Shown here one piece after another: positions 7,196-56,498 of a stretch of DNA of 64,000 bases. The DNA is from Naegleria gruberi (taxonomy: Eukaryota), in the NCBI GenBank assembly GCA_000004985.1, contig GG738893.1. The stretch is one strand, 5' to 3'. The notes beneath the pieces were generated by a model that saw only the letters and a program-made list of their open reading frames with translations, searched no databases and had not been told where the DNA came from. The translations under genes and the position numbers were made by a program. The first letter of the stretch is position 1. The number at the start of each line of letters is the position of its first letter.

Positions 7196-8697
7196 CTATT
7201 TTTTCGAAGATGGTTGTTTAGAATTTCTTCTAATCATTTCAACTGTGGTGGCAACATTTTGTTCAGTTTGTTGAAGGGCACCAGCTTTGTTTTCATTTCT
7301 ATTCTTCAATTGTCCACATGCACCAAGAATATCTTGTCCTTTGCTGTGTCTTACCGGTGCTGAGATTCCATTCTTGTAGAGGTATTTGGAAAATTCTTCA
7401 ATTCTTTCATCTGATGAGCATTCAAATCCACTTCCTTCCCATTCATTAAATGCAATCAAATTGACTGAACATGGAATGTCTTTAACCAATTTTACAAGAC
7501 GTTTGGCATCGTCAATAAAGTCATTCACATGATTCAACATGACATATTCGAAAGTGATATGTCTATTATTGTTTTTGAAGCATTGCTCTCTAAGGGTTTC
7601 AAATAAAACCTCCAGAGGGAAAATCTTATTAATTGGCACAATGTTATCTCTCAATTCATTGGTTGTGGCGTGAAGACTGATTGCTAAATTCACTCCCAAA
7701 TCATTGACAACATCTGGAATCAAGTTACATACTCCAGAAGTACTCACAATGATTTTTCTCTTTGAAATTCCACATCCATCACTCAAAATTTCAATGGCCT
7801 TTTTAACATTTTTGTAATTACTGCAATTAAAGGATTATGGTAAATTATTTAAATAATGAAATCAAAAACCTACTAGAGTGGTTCTCCTTCTCCCATAAAT
7901 ACAATATTATTAACAAATGATTTTTCAATAGAGGCTCTCTTTCTTTCTTCCTCTGTCATGTATATTGGAAAGTCCATCAATCTATGTTTAACTGAAACTA
8001 ATTGGCTTACAATTTCTGAAGCCAATAAATTTCTCTCAATAGGAGCTGTTCCAGTTCTGCAAAACTTACAATTCAATGAACATCCAACCTGACTACTCAA
8101 ACACACAGTTCCTCTTCCAAAACTATCACTAGCTTTTGGTGGATGGTAAATATATACTGCCTCAACTTTGTTAAATTGTTTTTGTTCTTTGAGAGTTGGT
8201 TTCTTCATTGGTGAAATTGCAACATCAGCATCAGAAATATTCTGTTGATTACCACATGATGACGATGCTGATGAAGTGGTGGAAACAATTGTACTATCAA
8301 CACTATTATCTGCAACAGGTGGCACATATTTTGGATTTTGAAAAGCAAATAAAAACTTTCTCGTGTGTTTATCCTTCTTGGATTTAATTTCTTCCTCAAT
8401 ATTTCCCAAAATATCAATAGAGTATAGTTCCGATAATGATTGACGATCGGATTTGGTCAAGACTGTAATATCATCAAATTTTCTGGCTCCAAACTTGTAT
8501 ATGAATTTATAAATTTCATTCAATCGGAATGATGATGCAACATGTGGATGAGTCTTTTCCAATATTTCCTTCATTTCTGTCTTGTTTAATCCCATCAGGG
8601 ATTTTCTAACAATTTGTGTTGAATAGAATCTGTGTTGAAAGTTTCCATTGATGACAATTTGTCGAGCACATAAATTTCCTAAAATCAATTTTTGCAT
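7196..8697 (-). CDS. RlmN/Cfr-family radical SAM RNA methyltransferase (23S rRNA m2A2503 / tRNA m2A37 type), two exons complement(join(7196..7820,7874..8697)), with N-terminal extension
   Basis: The CxxxCxxC cluster (CSLNCKFCRTG) is followed by FMGEGEPL(Y) and then ISLHATTNELRDNIVPINK...FEYVMLNHVNDF...IPCSVNLIAFNEW...ACGQL, which aligns along the whole length of bacterial RlmN. A 53-nt intron (GTAGGT...TTGCAG) splits MGEGEPL|YNYKNV in phase 2. N-terminal residues MQKLILGNLCARQIV...RFYS look like an organelle-targeting presequence. An S/T-rich insert precedes the Cys cluster. Confidence 0.8.
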
Positions 8698-28885: not shown

Positions 28886-30983
28886 TTAATGCTTGTTGTT
28901 AAATTTACACTTAATGAGATATCTCAAATTGGCTTGGGCAGTATCGTAGATAATAAATTCATTGTACAACAATGAACCACTTCTTTGAACTTGTGTTGGT
29001 TTACCAAGTGGAACTTTAATCTTTTGACCACTACAACTAGAATCAATTTCCAAAAATTCATTATTATCTGGTTCAGTTCTACCTTGACCCCAACATGAAT
29101 GTAAATCTTTTGGCAATTTAGTAACAAATTCAGCTTGAGTTCTATTATAAGTATTACCCAAAGCAACTTCAGTAAGTAAAAGCAAACCACTATTGTTTGA
29201 CAAGTGAGCATGACAATAGTTTGCTGACTTACTACACATATCAGCAAAGTAAACACCCTTACCAACTATTAAATAATAATAAATTAACTTTGAAATAACT
29301 TGAATAACTTGAAACTTACACATATAACCAGTAGCTGGAGCTTCAGGAGGAGCAATTCTCAAACCTTGAGAAAGGATACCAACAAAGTTTGTACTTCTAG
29401 AACCGTGGAAAAGAAGTTGCTTATTACTAATACTATCACTCTTAGCAACATATTTTTCTGTTTCACCATGTCTATTAACAACGAAAGCATCTTCTAATTC
29501 AAGAGTATAATAAGAGTGAGTTGGAGCGTGAGTATTTTGAATAAATTTGTTAATCCACTTCCATTCTTCAGAATCCTTAGCAATTGGTGTAATATCAGTC
29601 TTCAAATCACTATAAATTGAATCAACAATATTGACATCTGACTTTTTAGAAATAATCTTAGAGGCAATTTCAAGTTCACTTAATGATTCAACTAACTTGA
29701 TCTTTTGTTCCAATTGTGTCTTGGTTCTAATAACTATTTTTAAAATTAATTATCATCATTTAAAAAGTGATATTAAATAATAATAACTTACTTGGTGGAA
29801 CTTGTCTATGTCCAAATTGATGAGGAATAATAGTGTAGAATCTTGATGAAAGTGATTCCAAATCATCATCATCATTTTTACCATCAATTACATCTTGAAT
29901 CTTTTTAAGAACTTCATAACCACCTTGAACTTGTTTCTTTGAAAGTTTACCAAGTGGCATCTTATTTGTATCAATTTCAAATTCACGTAAAGTTTGATCA
30001 ATAAAAGATTTGTTACTGATAAATTTAACTAAATCTTGAACTCTAGAATCAAGTTTAGATTCTACAACCTTCTTTTCTTTCTTTTCTTCCTTAGCTTCAT
30101 CATCTTCTTCTTCTTTTTCATCATCATTATCTTCACTATAATCAATTTCTACAAAATCATATTTTCCATTCTTAAATTTGAATGAAGATCTCTTTGACCA
30201 TTCATTACCAGTCTTATCTTTAAACTTTTTAGCAAAGTCATCTTTAGCTTTTTGTAAACTAGCCATCTTTGATAACTTAGATTGTCCTTTTGCAGAAACT
30301 CTACCCCATCTATTAAAAACATAGTATGAAGATCCACTTTCAATCAATTGGATAATATAGAATTTGTTATTATTATTTCCAATATTTGTTTGATTGAGAG
30401 TAGCACTCCAAATATCATTTCCTTCAATATAAACTTTACCAGAAGTTTGCATACCAGATTCTAATAATTAGAATAAATTATTTTGTTAATTAATTAAATA
30501 ATTTTCGTGAACATACCTTCATCAACAGGAACTTTACCAGTTGAAACAACCTTCTTCTTCTTAGAGGCTGGTTCTTCAACCTTTTCTTCTTCTTCTTCCT
30601 CTTCCTCCTCTTCTTCTTCCTCATCTTCTTCTTCAGCCTTTCTCTTCTTTGAAACCTTCAATTCAAATGATGCAGAGTCAAGCCTTTGTTAAAATGGAGA
30701 TAAATTCCATCAATGATCATCATAATTATACCTACAATTTTTCTTGTTCAGCCGATTGATTAATAAAATCACTATTAACAACTTTAATTTTCTTAGTAAA
30801 GGCTGATTTGACTGTAGCTCCATTTTCATTGACAGCCTTCTCTGTAGTAACCAAATAATTGGTATCATTCTTTACGGATTTGTGAATTGTACCTCCTTCT
30901 TCTTCGATCAATTCAACAAGTTTGGATTTTTCACCTCCGTTGATGCCAACAAAAGCAAAGTTCAAATCATCAAATATACCCAT
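28886..30983 (-). CDS. PARP: Poly(ADP-ribose) polymerase with BRCT, acidic linker, WGR, helical regulatory domain and catalytic domain; 5 exons complement(join(28886..29265,29320..29733,29792..30460,30517..30683,30736..30983))
   Basis: The BRCT domain is in exon 1 (FAFVGINGGEKSKLVELIEEEGGTIHKSV...YLVTTE). The WGR is KFYIIQLIESGSSYYVFNRWGRV. The catalytic motifs are LLFHGSRSTNFVGILSQGLRIAPPEAPATGYM|FGKGVYFADMCSKSANYC...LLYNEFIIYD. Introns of 52, 56, 58 and 54 nt (GTAGGT, GTATGT, GTAAGT, GTAAGT donors) restore the PARP1-like alignment at every junction. Confidence 0.85.
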
Positions 30984-31720: not shown

Positions 31721-31809
31721 GGGCGGTTAGCTCAGCGGTAGAGCACCGGATTGCAAAGTTAATTGCAGCAGACATCCGATGGTCACGTGTTCGATCCACG
31801 TACCACCCT
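31721..31809 (+). tRNA. tRNA-Cys(GCA) with a roughly 17-nt intron 3' of anticodon position 37
   Basis: Acceptor GGGCGGT/ACCACCC has one C-A mismatch. D-arm is GCTC-AGCGGTA-GAGC. Anticodon stem is CCGGA, loop TTGCAA|intron|A, with anticodon GCA. The intron contains TTGCA, complementary to the anticodon region. T-arm is ACGTG-TTCGATC-CACGT, and the discriminator is U as expected for Cys. Confidence 0.6.
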
Positions 31810-43401: not shown

Positions 43402-45632
43402 TCAATAATTAAATATCAATGAAATGCAAATAGTGAGAAGGAGTGTTACAATTAATGAACAGTCCAATTTAAAAGATGATGAAACTCTTGTGGAATTTCT
43501 AGCAGAAACAGTTGGCTGAATGGCAGAGTTGGAGGCAGTTGGTACAACTACATTGGATGGAGTATATTTCAATAAACCAATGTCATTGAATGGAATTTTG
43601 GTAAAGTATTCATTCTCGTATGGGTTTCCTTCAATGAGTGTGAAATTTAAGGCACTTGGGTTGGCAAACCATTTCATTGGAACATTCATGGTATTGTTGG
43701 AGACAGTTGACTTGGCATAAACCATTGATGCAATATTCAATGAAGTTGTTCCACTCATTAAATTGAAAACTACCTTATTTCCTTTTGGAGCATGAGGGTC
43801 ATCATTGAGAATATTAACAAGAGATGGATAGGCAGAAGCCCAAGGCTCGGTTTGATAAGGCATATTTTGGAGATTCTTCATGAGTTGTACTGAATTATTT
43901 GGTGCATTATATCCTCTGTTATCAACATGAATACTAATGGTATTGTTAATGAAAATATTGTTTCTTACACCATTATCTCTACCACCACCAACAAGAATAG
44001 CTCTGTAACATTCCAAAAGTACGTTTCCGTAAACATCAGCAGATGAATATTGATCATCAAGGTAAATACATGAAGTACCAAGTTGACCAGGTCCACGAAT
44101 GTGGTGAATGAAATTGTACTTGATGACATTTCCTCTCATAGTCCAATCTCTATTCGAAACATTAGAAATGAATATGAACAACTTTAAACATACCTTCCAC
44201 TATAAATGGCTCCAGCATCTCCTGTTTGAGTGCAAACATTGTAAATTTCATTGTAAGATAATTCATGGTTATTACCACTGTGCAAGATGGCTACATGCGA
44301 AGCTGTATGCAATACATTGTGCATTACCTTAACACCACATCCACTCAATGAAACTGCGCCTCTATAGGTCTTACCAATTCTTGAAAAATTGAAAATAGTA
44401 TTGTTCATTACAATGAGATCAGTATTGGTGAGTGTAATTCTTGAACCACCAGAAACTGAAACACCTCCTTGACCCAATTCATACATGGTATTGCTTGTAA
44501 CCTTACAACCAGTCAAACAATTACCAATAGCAAGGCCAACATTACCAGTATTGGAGATAGTACAACTATTCACAATCAAATAATTATAATTTGATGCCTT
44601 GATTGCGGTTCCTCTACACATTCCCAAATTGAGATTATGGAATTGATGAGCATGGGCATTGACTGTGAAAATCTGATCAGTTACTGAAAGAACCAAATCA
44701 TCATCATTTTCCAGAGGTCCAGGTGGATACAAATAAACCATGTCATCTAAAATAATGTATTCTCCAGCTTGATCGAGCTCACTCAAGAAATTCAATAAGA
44801 AAAATCTTTGACCACCCACAATACCATAAGTAATTGAGGATTGTTTTAAAGTGACAACACCTTCTGGAGTGACACTTTGTAAATCTTCAGTGCCATCTGC
44901 CCAATCGTATGCCCAATATCCAAAACCGAAAGGATACTTTTCATTTGGCCATCTATTTCTATTGGTTGCATTAGTAGCATCGAATGTGAAATTATTGACA
45001 CCTGGCTTGGCTCCAATCTTTAAGAAATTATCATCGAGTGTATCAGGAGAAATATTTGGATAACGAGCCAACGTCAAAACCTTTCCTCTATAGAAAAGTT
45101 CATTTTGTGAATCAGTTGAACCAATATATTGACCATTTCTTTTGAGTTTTGAAATTTGAGTTTGTGAAAAACCGACAGCTGTCAAATTCAATTGCAAAAC
45201 CTTTCCTTGTGAGCTTGTTGGAATCATATTAAAGGCCCAATTATTATTCTGAGATGTTACAACTGACCACAAGCTAGCTGGGAGTGGAACACCACCAACC
45301 ACTTTGACACTCTTGCCAGAATTTAAAGGTTTCCAAATGACAGGTGAAGTATTATCATTATACTTGCTAGGACTAGCTAAGGTAATTGATGAATTAATGA
45401 AATAGGACCCTTCTTCAATTAAAATGTTATAGGTTTGATTGGTGAGAGCTGAATTCTTCATGGACACAACTGTGGCTGCTGCTTTAGACAAAGTTTTGAA
45501 TGGAGAGTTGGTTGAGTTACCAAAGTTTGTATCGAGACCTTGACTGTCCGAAACGTAGATGTTAACTTGGCCTTTTAACACAGATAGAATGGTTAGCAAC
45601 AAAACGAAACAAACTAGTGTTGAATATTTCAT
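43402..45632 (-). CDS. Secreted right-handed parallel beta-helix (pectin-lyase-fold) repeat protein with C-terminal GPI-anchor-like hydrophobic tail; complement(join(43402..44149,44194..45632))
   Basis: Signal peptide is MKYSTLVCFVLLLTILSVLKG. Many beta-helix rungs carry N/G/T ladders (IVNSCTISNTGNVGLAIGNC, LTNTDLIVMNNTIFNF, NNIFINNTISIHVDN). A 44-nt intron (GTATGT...GAATAG) joins ...AGAIYSGR|DWTMRGNV in phase 2. The C-terminus SSSFKLDCSLIVTLLLTICISLIFNY is an omega-site-like hydrophobic tail. Confidence 0.6.
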
Positions 45633-50939: not shown

Positions 50940-51012
50940 CGCCCACCGTGGGGGTCGAACCCACGACCACAAGGTTAAGAGCCTTGCGCTCTACCGACTG
51001 AGCTAGACGGGC
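50940..51012 (-). tRNA. tRNA-Lys(CTT), 73 nt, intact cloverleaf
   Basis: Reverse complement GCCCGTCTAGCTCAGTCGGTAGAGCGCAAGGCTCTTAACCTTGTGGTCGTGGGTTCGACCCCCACGGTGGGCG. The anticodon loop CTCTTAA gives anticodon CTT. All four stems pair, and the sequence is near-identical to metazoan tRNA-Lys-CTT. Confidence 0.9.
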
Positions 51013-51200: not shown

Positions 51201-51273
51201 CGCCCACCGTCGTGGTCGAACCCACGACCACAAGGTTAAGAGCCTTGCTCTCTACCGACTGAGCTAGACGGGC
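51201..51273 (-). tRNA. Second tRNA-Lys(CTT) copy with 4 substitutions relative to the first; the T-stem and one D-stem pair are disrupted, so it is probably a degenerate or pseudo copy (or assembly noise next to the gap)
   Basis: It differs from the 50940..51012 copy at tRNA positions 25, 60, 61 and 63. G51-G63 and G53-A61 would no longer pair. The acceptor, anticodon arm and CTT anticodon are unchanged. Confidence 0.5.
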
Positions 51274-51409: not shown

Positions 51410-52402
51410 TTAATACCTGAATATTCTTAAAACGTTGTTACAATAATCAGCAAAATAAAGCTCTCCATTATATGAATTCAATGTACATCCTCCTACGTAG
51501 CTCTCCTGTATCAGTTCACTATTCTTTGAATTATTGGAAATATCAGAAACAGATTCTAACCTCCCTTCCATATCCATAACTTTAATGCAATCGGTATTGA
51601 CAGTTATTATTTTGTAAGAAATCGTGTCAAATAGCGCATAGAAAAAATCATTGAAATGAATCTCCTTGACACTCTTCCATTCAGTTTCGTTAATTTTCTT
51701 CAATATTGAGAGATATTTCTCATCTTGATTGGTCAATAAAAGTGTAAATTCATTAATCACTTGAACATTCCACACACAAAATCCAAAATCCATTTGTTCT
51801 AAAACTTTTCCATCAGACAAGCTTAATATCGAAAATTTCAAGTAAGGATCACAAAAATAGATAGCATTTCCATAATGTTGTAATCCAGCTGGTCCATCAA
51901 ATAATTGACTCTTCCAAACATGTTTCAATTCATTGGGTTGTTGATGATTCAACATTTCGAATAGGGAATACTTGTAGACATGACCATCACAACATGAAAT
52001 AATTAGAGAATTACCACCCACTACACCTGTATCATTCTCTACCACATCTATATATACTGGAGTGGCAGGCATGATGATGGACTTCATCAGATTCCTACTC
52101 ATTAAACAGAAAAATTGAATTCTATCATTGCCATGATCACTCACAATAATACAACCAAGTGAGTGGCAAATCTTTACATCAAACGGATTTTTAAACCCCG
52201 AAATATTATCAACATTATCAATTTCATTAGAAAAGGCTTTCTTTCGTTTAGATTTGAATTTTTCCAACATGTGGGATGGAAAATTCACATTAAAATCTAT
52301 CAATTCGATATTTACTAAATTTTCATCAGTCAAAGATGAGGAATATTTTCTCTTCTTGGAGGAACTTTCAAGGGAATTTTCTTGGTGGTGTTTAATAGAC
52401 AT
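51410..52402 (-). CDS. NHL-repeat beta-propeller protein, 330 aa
   Basis: NHL-like blades (CIIVSDHGNDRIQFF, LYFADYCNNVLRIFRY, IYFCDPYLKFSILS). Single minus-strand ORF with an S/K-rich N-terminus. Confidence 0.55.
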   Translation of the reverse strand: MSIKHHQENSLESSSKKRKYSSSLTDENLVNIELIDFNVNFPSHMLEKFKSKRKKAFSNEIDNVDNISGFKNPFDVKICHSLGCIIVSDHGNDRIQFFCLMSRNLMKSIIMPATPVYIDVVENDTGVVGGNSLIISCCDGHVYKYSLFEMLNHQQPNELKHVWKSQLFDGPAGLQHYGNAIYFCDPYLKFSILSLSDGKVLEQMDFGFCVWNVQVINEFTLLLTNQDEKYLSILKKINETEWKSVKEIHFNDFFYALFDTISYKIITVNTDCIKVMDMEGRLESVSDISNNSKNSELIQESYVGGCTLNSYNGELYFADYCNNVLRIFRY

Positions 52403-52720: not shown

Positions 52721-53845
52721 ATGGAAGAACATCAATCTCTTGTAATTGACAATGGTTCTGGAATGTGTAAAGCTGGTTTCGCTGGCGAAGATGCTCCACG
52801 TGCTGTTTTTCCTTCATTGATTGGTAGACCAAAACAAAGGTCAATTATGGTTGGAATGGGAAATAAGGATGCCTATGTTGGAGATGAAGCCATGTCAAAG
52901 AAGGGAATCCTCGCTCTCAAATATCCAATTGAGCACGGAATTATCACTAACTGGGATGATATGGAAAAGATTTGGCATCATACTTTCTATAATGAATTGA
53001 GAGTTGGTCCTGAAGAGCATGGTGTCTTATTAACTGAAGCTCCATTGAATCCAAAGGCAAATCGTGAAAAGATGACACAAATCATGTTCGAAACCTTTAG
53101 AGTTCCAGCCATGTATGTGGCCATTCAAGCTGTCTTGTCCTTGTATGCTTCTGGTAGAACTACAGGTATTGTTTTGGATTCAGGTGATGGTGTTTCACAT
53201 ACTGTTCCTATCTATGAGGGTTATGCTTTACCACATGCCATTTTAAGATTGGATTTGGCTGGTCGTGATTTAACTGACTACTTGATGAAGATCTTGATGG
53301 AACGTGGATACAGTTTCAACACCAGTGCTGAACGTGAAATTGTCAGAGATATTAAGGAAAAGCTTTGTTATGTTGCCTTTGACTTTGAAACTGAAATTAA
53401 GAAAGCATCTTAAAGTTCATCCATTGATACTTCATATGAATTACCAGATGGTAATATTATCACAGTTGGAAATGAACGATTCAGATGTCCAGAAGTGTTA
53501 TTCCAACCTAATTTCATTGGAATGGAAGCTGCTGGTGTACACGAAACAACTTTCAATTCTATTGGAAAGTGTGATATTGACATTAGAAAGGATTTATATG
53601 CCAATGTTGTACTTTCAGGTGGTACAACCATGTTTGAAGGAATTGCTGAGAGAATGAACAAGGAATTGACAGCTATGGCTCCAGCCTCAATGAAGATTCG
53701 TGTTGTTGCTCCACCAGAAAGAAAGTATTCAGTTTGGATTGGTGGTAGTATTCTCTCTTCATTATCAACCTTTCAATCTATGTGGATCACAGCAGAGGAG
53801 TATGAAGATGCTGGATGTGCCATCGTTCATAGAAAGTGTTTCTAA
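52721..53845 (+). CDS. ACT: Actin paralog (about 85% identical to conventional actin), complete 375-codon frame except for one in-frame TAA at 53411..53413
   Basis: [32 protein letters not shown]...[10 protein letters not shown][TAA][27 protein letters not shown]...IVHRKCF. The two ORFs are in the same frame, and the TAA occupies exactly one residue position of the actin alignment (ATAAS|S|SSLEKSYELPDG). Everything else is intact. Confidence 0.8.
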
Positions 53846-53955: not shown

Positions 53956-54075
53956 TTAAGGTAAAAAGACTACAGCACCACAGGTTCCCAAGTTGTCTCC
54001 AACCTCAGTACTGATGTGGCTCGACGATGCTTAACTTCTCAAATCGGACGGGATGAGGTGCATTCATCGTGATAT
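53956..54075 (-). rRNA. 5S ribosomal RNA gene (about 119 nt) followed by a T5 Pol III terminator
   Basis: Reverse complement GCTACGGCCATATCACGATGAATGCACCTCATCCCGTCCGATTTGAGAAGTTAAGCATCGTCGAGCCACATCAGTACTGAGGTTGGAGACAACTTGGGAACCTGTGGTGCTGTAGTCTTTTT aligns end-to-end with eukaryotic 5S rRNA (GCCTACGGCCATACCA...GGGAATACCGGGTGCTGTAGGCTTT). It is GC-richer than the flanking DNA. Confidence 0.85.
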
Positions 54076-55118
54076 GGCCGTAGCCATTCAATTAACAAAA
54101 ATCTTAATCATAAATAATACAACCTACAAAAACAAGCTCTTAATCATAAAAAATAAGTTTTTGTTTATGGTTAACACTTTTCACTTTTCCATTTGGAAAC
54201 ACATTGACGATATTGTTCAGTAGTTGCCAATTCTTCAATTGATTTCTTATTGACACAATAAGTAATGATTAACTACATTCTTGTAAATGTTTCATCAATC
54301 CATTGTTTCATGAATGCTGGCATTGAGTACATTGGAAATTGGAAGAAATAAATAAAGATGAATCCTGACCATCTATTTGTTTCAAGTTTGTAATGGAAAC
54401 CAATTTCTCAAACCATTGAGAAAACAATCATATTCTAACCCACCTTCATCACAAATTATTACAATTGTTATGGTATTCAGTTGTTATTTCAGAAAACTTT
54501 CAATCATGCAGATTAATCTTTATAATGTTCCATATCAAGCATGTGGTATCTTGTTTTCTATTTATTGGGTTTAGCATTAGAGATGTCATTACATTTGAGA
54601 GTTATTTACAATAATTATTGATATGGACTGGTAATCTACCGAATTTGGATGAAAGAGACAAAGTACTGTTCATGCCCTTTCAGTTAATATCATTCACTGA
54701 ATGTAAGTTATGAATTAACATGCTGTTTCAAGGTATACAATGCAATCTAATTGTTATCAGAAAGTTGAAGAAACGAACCTAAAATCAGCCAAGTTGTTTT
54801 GTTTGTGAAAAGATATTGTGATATCAACGAAATAATCATTTTCACAGAAAGTGAATCTGATTTTTCAGGATCCCTTAGTCCAGCCAACTGTCAACTAATC
54901 AACATCTATTCGAATGTTAAAAATGTCAGATTTTTCAACATCAACTTTAGTGTCCAAGTCATATTGTTTGACCTACATCAACATTTTAAAACAAAACAAT
55001 CTTTCCATACATATGAAAGTGTCACCAATCATTGTCAATTTTCATTCACAAACTTGGAATAAGTTTTTTTTGAAACAAGCTGTCTTCCATCCTATCCACT
55101 TTCAACTAACAAGACTGT

Positions 55119-56498
55119 ATGCAAAAGAAGAGACACACCAAAACAAACACACAAAAAAAGTGTATCCACTCAATGACTGCGATCACGATGATGGAAAATA
55201 ATAATACATTATCTTCTTCTTACAAGACCAATAAGAACAACGAAAGCGATAACAAGAATACTAACAACAACAATAATAACATTAATAATATAACAATACA
55301 TACGAGTCCATCGCTGCCATTAATGGAAGAATCTAAAGAACAAATATCTTCAACAACAACAACAATAACGGAGGAAAATATGAGTCAGATTGTACAACTG
55401 GGAGGAGATTTGACCATTATCGATAATAACAACAATAGAAATTCATCATCATCCTCATCAACTTCATCACCACTCAAATTATTTCTCAGCAAACTCTTTT
55501 CAAAGAGACGAAAATCACAAGCTGATAATGGTGCTAAGAATAATAACAACAACACCACTACTAATGGTTCTTCACCAAATAACTCTCAAAACTCTAAAAA
55601 TCAAGCCTTTAAAAACCTTCTCACGCCCCACAGTGATTCCTCCTCATCACTGAATAATCCTAACAATAACATTTCGAATATCACAAGTCACTCCACCAAC
55701 AATATTATCAACTCGAGTACGAGTGGAAGAAAATCGAAAAGACTTTCGGCGACCTTCTTTAAGAGAAGACACACCACTCAACTCTCGCAATCACCAATTC
55801 ATAGCTCAACACAGGAAATTGAGAATTTCAGAGAGGAAGCTATTAAGAGACAAATTCAACAATCCAATCATGATGAGTTTATGTTTAACACTTCAATTGT
55901 ACCTCCTACGACAACTAGTCCATCTTCTTCAGTGACAACAATTAATAGTGCAATCTCAATCTCACTCACTCCAAACAATAATAATAGTGGAAATACTCCA
56001 CATCCTAACAGAACTAGAAGGAGTAGCTCATCAAAATCCATACCTGACAATGCAGATACATTCTTTGATGAAAACTCTGCTTTTGATATGGACGATTTAA
56101 TGTGGATTACCATGGAACCAACCACAACAAGGACAAGTTTCCGACCAAAGACAGTCTCATCAAATTCTCTGATTAGTGTCACATCGAATAATGGTAATTC
56201 ATCAACGGGTAGAAGAGACAGTGCTGCTCACAGTAGTGTTAATGATGAAGAGATTGTTGATGATTTGGAGGTAATCATTCCATGCATAACAATAGATGAT
56301 GGTTCAGTGATGAGAACCCTCTCTCCTACAACTTCATCCACCACCACCACTAACAATAATTCGAGTATCATACAACCACCACCATCATCCACAAGACATG
56401 TTAATAGCTGGGATCTAGATGATGATATTGAAGCTGCCCACAATTCCTTTTCCTTCTCTCCAGGAAGTATGAATGCCTCCAACATTATCAATTTGTAA
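55119..56498 (+). CDS. Hypothetical 459-aa N/S/T-rich low-complexity protein
   Basis: Single ORF. A possible alternative start is the ATG at 55173 (MTAITMMENNN). Poly-N and poly-T/S tracts. It is preceded by about 1.05 kb without ORFs. Confidence 0.45.
   Translation: MQKKRHTKTNTQKKCIHSMTAITMMENNNTLSSSYKTNKNNESDNKNTNNNNNNINNITIHTSPSLPLMEESKEQISSTTTTITEENMSQIVQLGGDLTIIDNNNNRNSSSSSSTSSPLKLFLSKLFSKRRKSQADNGAKNNNNNTTTNGSSPNNSQNSKNQAFKNLLTPHSDSSSSLNNPNNNISNITSHSTNNIINSSTSGRKSKRLSATFFKRRHTTQLSQSPIHSSTQEIENFREEAIKRQIQQSNHDEFMFNTSIVPPTTTSPSSSVTTINSAISISLTPNNNNSGNTPHPNRTRRSSSSKSIPDNADTFFDENSAFDMDDLMWITMEPTTTRTSFRPKTVSSNSLISVTSNNGNSSTGRRDSAAHSSVNDEEIVDDLEVIIPCITIDDGSVMRTLSPTTSSTTTTNNNSSIIQPPPSSTRHVNSWDLDDDIEAAHNSFSFSPGSMNASNIINL

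Follow-up and report, generated by a model that had tools for sequence, protein, structure and literature searches.

A premature stop codon in an otherwise intact actin paralog of Naegleria gruberi, probably a very recent nonsense mutation

The actin gene NAEGRDRAFT_83258 of Naegleria gruberi is interrupted by a single in-frame TAA. This stop is, in our view, probably a nonsense mutation of very recent origin, or a null allele, and the minor actin paralog that carries it is redundant. The gene lies in a stretch of 64 kb, which is called the window below whenever the whole of the analysed DNA is meant. In the proposed course of events one G-to-T change would have turned GAA (Glu) into TAA at codon 231, translation would stop after residue 230, and the resulting fragment, without most of subdomains 4 and 3, would be unable to form a normal monomer. 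With dozens of other actin genes still in place, one of them a paralog only five residues different, the loss would be tolerated, and the copy would then be a first-step pseudogene, or else the null allele of a heterozygous clone, in a family that evolves by birth and death.

For N. gruberi the published counts are more than 20 for actins and 78 for actins and Arps together (PMC7594500), and the Actin-1 orthogroup, in which the product of the present gene is listed as EFC40304, holds 64 N. gruberi genes against 4 in N. lovaniensis (PMC9928731). In a family of this size actin redundancy is extreme, and the conventional actin protein (P0077) is itself encoded at four N. gruberi loci. A sequence-only reading of the same DNA had listed several options for the stop, and a recent nonsense mutation in a redundant paralog is a realistic one, given the extreme redundancy and the intact paralog at five residues' distance. 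The options of a base-call error and of a polymorphism are realistic as well.

An actin frame with one internal stop codon

The gene forms a gapless actin frame of 374 codons, with the internal TAA included, followed by its terminator (Table 1), which agrees with the 375 codons counted in the sequence-only reading. Residues 1-230 match positions 2-250 of the Pfam Actin profile PF00022 (profile length 410; E 1e-80) and residues 232-374 match positions 256-410 (E 5e-57). Because the match is contiguous on both sides of the TAA, the stop replaces one residue, and there is neither a shift nor a gap. The same reading had described the frame as conserved on either side of the stop, and the stop as falling exactly on one residue of the actin alignment; the profile matches bear out the former and the gapless alignment to the closest paralog, which has Asp there, the latter. 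The full-length profile match and the gapless alignment with conventional actins of 374-377 residues place the product in the actin family. In a protein search the frame was 88-98% identical to Naegleria actins, and the nearest full-length relatives of the full frame were actins of N. gruberi. The uninterrupted reading frame of a functional actin gene is broken by the TAA at codon 231. By our own numbering, counted back from P243, we take the stop position to lie at about Ser232 of rabbit skeletal actin, presumably a variable surface residue of subdomain 4.

Table 1. Positions of the actin gene, its codons of interest and other features of the window mentioned in the text
Feature	Position	Strand	Remarks
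Actin gene NAEGRDRAFT_83258	52721..53845	+	ATG at 52721; 374 codons + terminator, without a real intron
'Intron' of the deposited model, 81 nt	53367..53447	+	GTTATG...TACCAG; contains the TAA
ATT (Ile), codon 226	53396..53398	+	Met (ATG) in all 34 other aligned actins
Internal TAA, codon 231	53411..53413	+	Asp in the closest paralog, GAT in same-subgroup homologs of N. fowleri and N. lovaniensis, GAA in N. gruberi conventional actin
CGT (Arg), codon 327	53699..53701	+	Lys in paralogs (AAG in L001, the N. gruberi conventional actin contig, a Logan contig of SRR3922091)
Genuine terminator TAA	53843..53845	+	After ...HRKCF; TAA-A context like the internal stop
Upstream neighbour gene	51410-52402	-	No Pfam domain
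Downstream neighbour gene	55119-56498	+	No Pfam domain
5S rRNA gene	53967-54085	-	Rfam RF00001, 105 bits, full length
tRNA-Lys(CTT), two copies	50940-51012; 51201-51273	-	189 nt apart
tRNA, 89 nt	31721-31809	+	Rfam 50 bits, missed by ARAGORN
Inferred intron, PARP gene	29750-29762 region	-	Exons 29763-30452 and 28889-29749; PARP_reg domain split 1-90 / 92-134
Inferred intron, beta-helix protein or RlmN-like gene	~44155-44198	-	ORF/domain continuity
Inferred intron, the other of these two genes	~7815-7867	-	ORF/domain continuity

Closest paralog and ancestral codon

The best full-length match of the window gene is the intact N. gruberi paralog NAEGRDRAFT_48298 (XP_002678295, EFC45551; hereafter P0058), a protein of 374 aa with 98% identity. 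Comparison with the other actin paralogs of the genome had been proposed earlier as a check, and it yields this intact copy, from which the window copy is separated by S6A, I226M, I246V, R327K and T357S, all of them conservative, besides the stop in the place of Asp. P0058, a member of the 'MEEHQ / KKASD' subgroup, resembles the window gene in its gapless length of 374 residues, its N-terminus MEEHQ and its C-terminus, of which 12 residues are the same, whereas it differs in having Asp at the stop position and in lying on a scaffold of 502,116 bp, the window gene being on one of 337,165 bp. The scaffold of P0058 is without a copy of the window gene's upstream neighbour, and only one database copy of that neighbour was found, a 100% identical N. 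gruberi 'predicted protein' on the 337,165-bp scaffold. Since the database has the neighbour as a single copy, P0058 is a dispersed paralog and not the product of an allelic scaffold or of a segmental duplication including that neighbour, and on this ground the explanation by an allelic scaffold was dropped.

In addition to the residues and codons that Table 1 gives for the stop position, one environmental Naegleria-like actin has Gln there. Because other Naegleria actins carry GAT or GAA at this position, the simplest assumption is that the ancestral codon was GAA (Glu) and that one G-to-T change produced TAA. From GAT or GAC two changes would be needed, and the Asp of the closest paralog counts against a simple one-step origin. 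TCA or CAA had been suggested as the true codon before any relatives were compared, and in this respect the family comparison points elsewhere, namely to Glu or Asp (GAA/GAT).

The deposited gene model

The deposited entry for this locus is NAEGRDRAFT_83258 (XP_002673048 / EFC40304 / UniProt D2VS98; P0110), a protein of 347 aa on the scaffold of 337,165 bp. The actin frame of the window minus 81 nt reproduces this protein exactly, from which it follows that the TAA is present in the deposited N. gruberi NEG-M assembly. The model joins ...KEKL-T to AT-GGT..., with GT at 53367 and AG at 53447, and the excised segment is the one that holds the stop.

We regard it as highly improbable that this segment is a genuine intron or exitron that yields an actin-like protein of 347 aa. 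In its favour are the GT...AG ends, a length that is a multiple of three and its use in the deposited model, but the segment codes in frame for 25 conserved actin residues plus parts of two flanking codons, (C)...(D), and the 27 positions spliced out hold residues found in every actin retrieved, 24 of the 27 being identical to P0058. The TGT-TAT...CCA-GA bases are also present, and coding, in the conventional actin of N. gruberi and in an actin of N. fowleri. As a local standard we used three introns of the window, inferred by us from the continuity of ORFs and Pfam domains; these are 44-58 nt long, have 12-25% GC and begin with GTAAGT, GTATGT or GTAGGT and end with ...ATAG or GCAG, whereas the segment in the actin gene is 81 nt long, has 31% GC and begins with GTTATG. 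Neither the splice consensus nor the AT-rich, non-coding content of a spliceosomal intron was thus found. From general knowledge of the structure, we take the stretch to be a helix, a loop and a strand of subdomain 4, all of which its removal would take away. Because the segment codes for conserved actin residues, unlike the real introns nearby, the 81-nt 'intron' is, as judged from these comparisons, an annotation artefact, a workaround by which a gene caller bypassed the stop.

Constraint on the gene and quality of the base call

To describe the history of the stop-bearing copy, it was aligned with 34 Naegleria and Naegleria-like actins of 370-380 residues. It has no indels, and at columns that are otherwise invariant it has one private change, the conservative Met226Ile (ATG to ATT), which is in keeping with the earlier statement that no second lesion is visible. 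By the same count, another N. gruberi actin, EFC39380 (P0082, annotated as 'conventional actin'), has 14 private changes and NAEGRDRAFT_56150 (P0091) has 4, and the replacements in these two include radical ones (Gly to Arg, Tyr to Asp in PIYEGY, Arg to Cys, Arg to Ile and Gly to Asp). Both have open frames without stops, and from their replacements they look like decaying or neofunctionalised copies.

The dN/dS of the window copy (Nei-Gojobori) is 0.055-0.059 against the conventional actin of N. gruberi and actins of N. fowleri and N. lovaniensis, distant comparators with saturated dS (~1.3), so that the value describes the long-term history only. Together with the single conservative private change it indicates that the gene was constrained until recently. 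Moreover, the CGT of Arg327 is at least two base changes away from the AAG of Lys, which suggests that the window copy has long been a separate, constrained gene. The effective number of codons is 36.0 in the window copy, 27.4 in the conventional actin and ~40-44 in most genes of the window, and this codon bias, which lies between that of the conventional actin and the weaker one of most genes in the window, suggests a minor paralog of moderate expression.

Provided that the T has been called correctly, the copy carries a disabling lesion while intact paralogs exist, as is expected of a non-processed pseudogene derived from a duplicated copy. Signs of relaxed constraint, namely radical replacements, indels or a raised dN/dS, are absent from it. 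For a pseudogene, this absence would be compatible only with a very young lesion, and it fits a reference error equally well: with purifying selection acting through nearly the whole history of the gene, the stop would be either very young or not real.

It has to be considered whether the TAA is a base-call or consensus error, in which case the true codon would be one for an amino acid, for example GAA or GAT, and the gene a working actin paralog without a lesion, and we regard this as possible, although somewhat unlikely. The gene is otherwise flawless, with no indels, one conservative private change and a dN/dS of about 0.06, and the T at 53411 rests on one assembly. The only private anomalies, ATT in the place of ATG and the TAA, lie 13 nt apart, as they would in a poor stretch of reads, and both would be G-to-T changes if the ancestor had GAA. 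Their proximity could reflect a clustered mutation or a locally poor consensus; the chance of two events in 374 codons falling so close is ~3%, a value calculated after seeing the data. Against an error, the 5.8-billion-protein collection held no full-length protein combining a sense codon with the private residues of this gene, which is weak negative evidence; P0058, with 98% identity, is the best full-length match there, and it and P0110 are each the sole member of their cluster. Searching with the fragment of 137 aa around the stop returned short proteins only, the best of them a truncated actin of N. lovaniensis with 93% identity, and the combination of a sense codon with the private residues was absent among these matches also. 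A pattern scan of metagenomes across the stop (AAGAAAGCATCTNNNAGTTCATCCATT) gave no matches, a protein search of metagenomes gave only generic actins of at most 85% identity and no orthologs, and the literature search for the locus tag and accessions found nothing.

By our own estimate, a multi-fold Sanger consensus will seldom contain an error-made stop in any given gene, whereas actin copies in decay are plain to see in the N. gruberi genome, and nothing else in the window looks like a lesion of the kind that poor local quality would leave. On a rough prior of our own, copies with a single lesion in a decaying family of 64 members are likelier per gene than stops made by consensus errors, and for this reason we favour a real lesion, with T as the true base in the organism, over an error of the reference.

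Decoding of the stop codon

If the UAA is real, it might still be read as sense. The 34 long ORFs of the window end in TAA (25), TAG (5) and TGA (4), a few of these ends being introns and not true stops, and the claim of a standard code in the sequence-only reading stands on these counts. TAA followed by A is the commonest terminator context (16 of the 34 ORFs) and also that of the actin gene's own terminator, and C is never the next base after a terminator in the window.

A variant code in which TAA is a sense codon, dependent on context as in Condylostoma or Blastocrithidia, would have the single in-frame TAA itself in its favour and nothing more. In such a code in-frame TAA would be expected in many genes and would be avoided as a terminator, but here it is the main terminator of the long ORFs and the ~35 genes of the window have no second case of an in-frame stop, which excludes a variant code for practical purposes and leaves it barely conceivable. 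To our knowledge, no variant code has been reported in Naegleria gruberi. The distribution of such stops was followed by a six-frame scan of the 64 kb for paired open segments of at least 70 codons parted by a single stop. Apart from actin, the scan returned six same-frame pairs, all of them contained in longer ORFs of other frames or antisense to such ORFs, so that in the 64 kb only the actin gene consists of two long open segments of one real gene split by a single stop.

We also consider it very unlikely that the UAA is recoded, by programmed readthrough or by U-to-C RNA editing, with full-length actin as the product. The reading frame downstream of the stop is perfectly preserved, although this is expected anyway if the lesion is recent, and the stop falls on a variable surface position (Ser, Ala, Asp, Glu or Gln in actins), where whichever residue is inserted would do no harm. 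Of all stop contexts, UAA before a purine is the least leaky. The internal stop stands in the context UAA AGU UCA, and not in a leaky one (UGA or UAG, C at +4, a CARYYA-type 3' sequence), and it shares the commonest terminator context of the window and that of the gene's own end. The 120 nt downstream of it fold at -24.2 kcal/mol against -20.5 ± 3.5 for shuffled sequences (z -1.06), 31 of 200 shuffles folding as well, and a stimulatory 3' RNA structure is therefore not indicated. In homologs the position is held by codons for Asp or Glu, which means that neither orthologs nor paralogs share the stop, and an in-frame stop is not repeated in any other gene of the window. The tRNAs in the window are tRNA-Lys(CTT), present twice, and one that is Cys-like, and none of the three is a suppressor or otherwise reads UAA. 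Ideas of a selenocysteine-like mechanism or a suppressor tRNA were dropped likewise, the codon being TAA, the main terminator here, and a suppressor tRNA being absent from the window.

Genes with programmed readthrough, such as those with viral leaky stops or eukaryotic stops of the UGA-CUAG type, have an in-frame stop and a conserved frame downstream, as does the actin gene. In contrast to them, the actin gene has UAA-A, no stimulatory structure, a stop that is not conserved and no extension domain, and its stop interrupts a standard protein, unlike that of genes in which readthrough adds an extension. Programmed readthrough had been among the options of the sequence-only reading, and in the light of the stop's context, the lack of a significant structure and the sense codons of the homologs it finds no support. 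That a real UAA is decoded usefully, whether through near-cognate readthrough or after U-to-C editing has made it CAA, seems to us extremely unlikely. If true, it would mean an actin of low or condition-dependent output, with expression gated by the efficiency of termination and with Gln, Tyr or Lys tolerated at the site, and heteroloboseans would thereby gain their first described case of a recoded nuclear gene.

Genomic neighbourhood

The window has 34% GC and dense, mostly intron-free ORFs, together with a 5S rRNA gene and tRNA genes, all of which agrees with N. gruberi as its source. The 5S rRNA gene is separated from the actin terminator by ~120 nt; it lies on the other strand, convergent with actin. 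The second of the two tRNA-Lys(CTT) copies scores 41 against 66 bits in Rfam, showing that the copies have diverged. By eye, the tRNA of 89 nt can be read as tRNA-Cys(GCA) whose intron of ~17 nt follows position 37; its acceptor stem has one mismatch, and so has its anticodon stem. For the upstream neighbour of the actin gene no homolog but itself was found in the searched protein collection, and it therefore appears to be a species-specific orphan.

Gene turnover in the actin family

A nonsense mutation in NAEGRDRAFT_83258, our preferred reading, would fit what is seen elsewhere in the family. In N. lovaniensis a 5'-truncated actin on PYSW02000043.1 (L003:2905-3549) covers residues 161-374 only and is annotated as a hypothetical protein of 182 aa, C9374_010465; a DDE transposase gene lies ~1.5 kb upstream of it. 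This copy is probably a gene fragment or pseudogene, as far as its structure tells. Two paralogs of decayed appearance in N. gruberi and the truncated copy in N. lovaniensis suggest a birth-and-death pattern in the family. The actinome of Dictyostelium discoideum is similar to that of N. gruberi in comprising a large family of near-identical actins with diverged or disabled members and birth-and-death evolution, and the D. discoideum actinome of Joseph et al. 2008 is said to include several annotated actin pseudogenes. Set beside the actin pseudogenes of amoebae, the window copy, whose one lesion is unaccompanied by further decay, would represent the earliest detectable stage.

For the public record, XP_002673048 / D2VS98 with its 347 aa is an artefact, and once reads have been checked, the locus calls for re-annotation as a pseudogene or for correction to an actin of 374 aa. 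Counts and alignments of Naegleria actins have taken the artefact in, the Actin-1 orthogroup of 64 genes among them.

The feature itself is an ordinary one, a premature stop in a spare actin copy or an error of a single base. Biologically it matters little; what it captures is either a gene in the act of dying or an error of the reference, in one of the largest known actin families. If the lesion is real, the pair of NAEGRDRAFT_83258 and NAEGRDRAFT_48298 would be a clean example of a first-hit pseudogene by which the turnover of the family could be calibrated.
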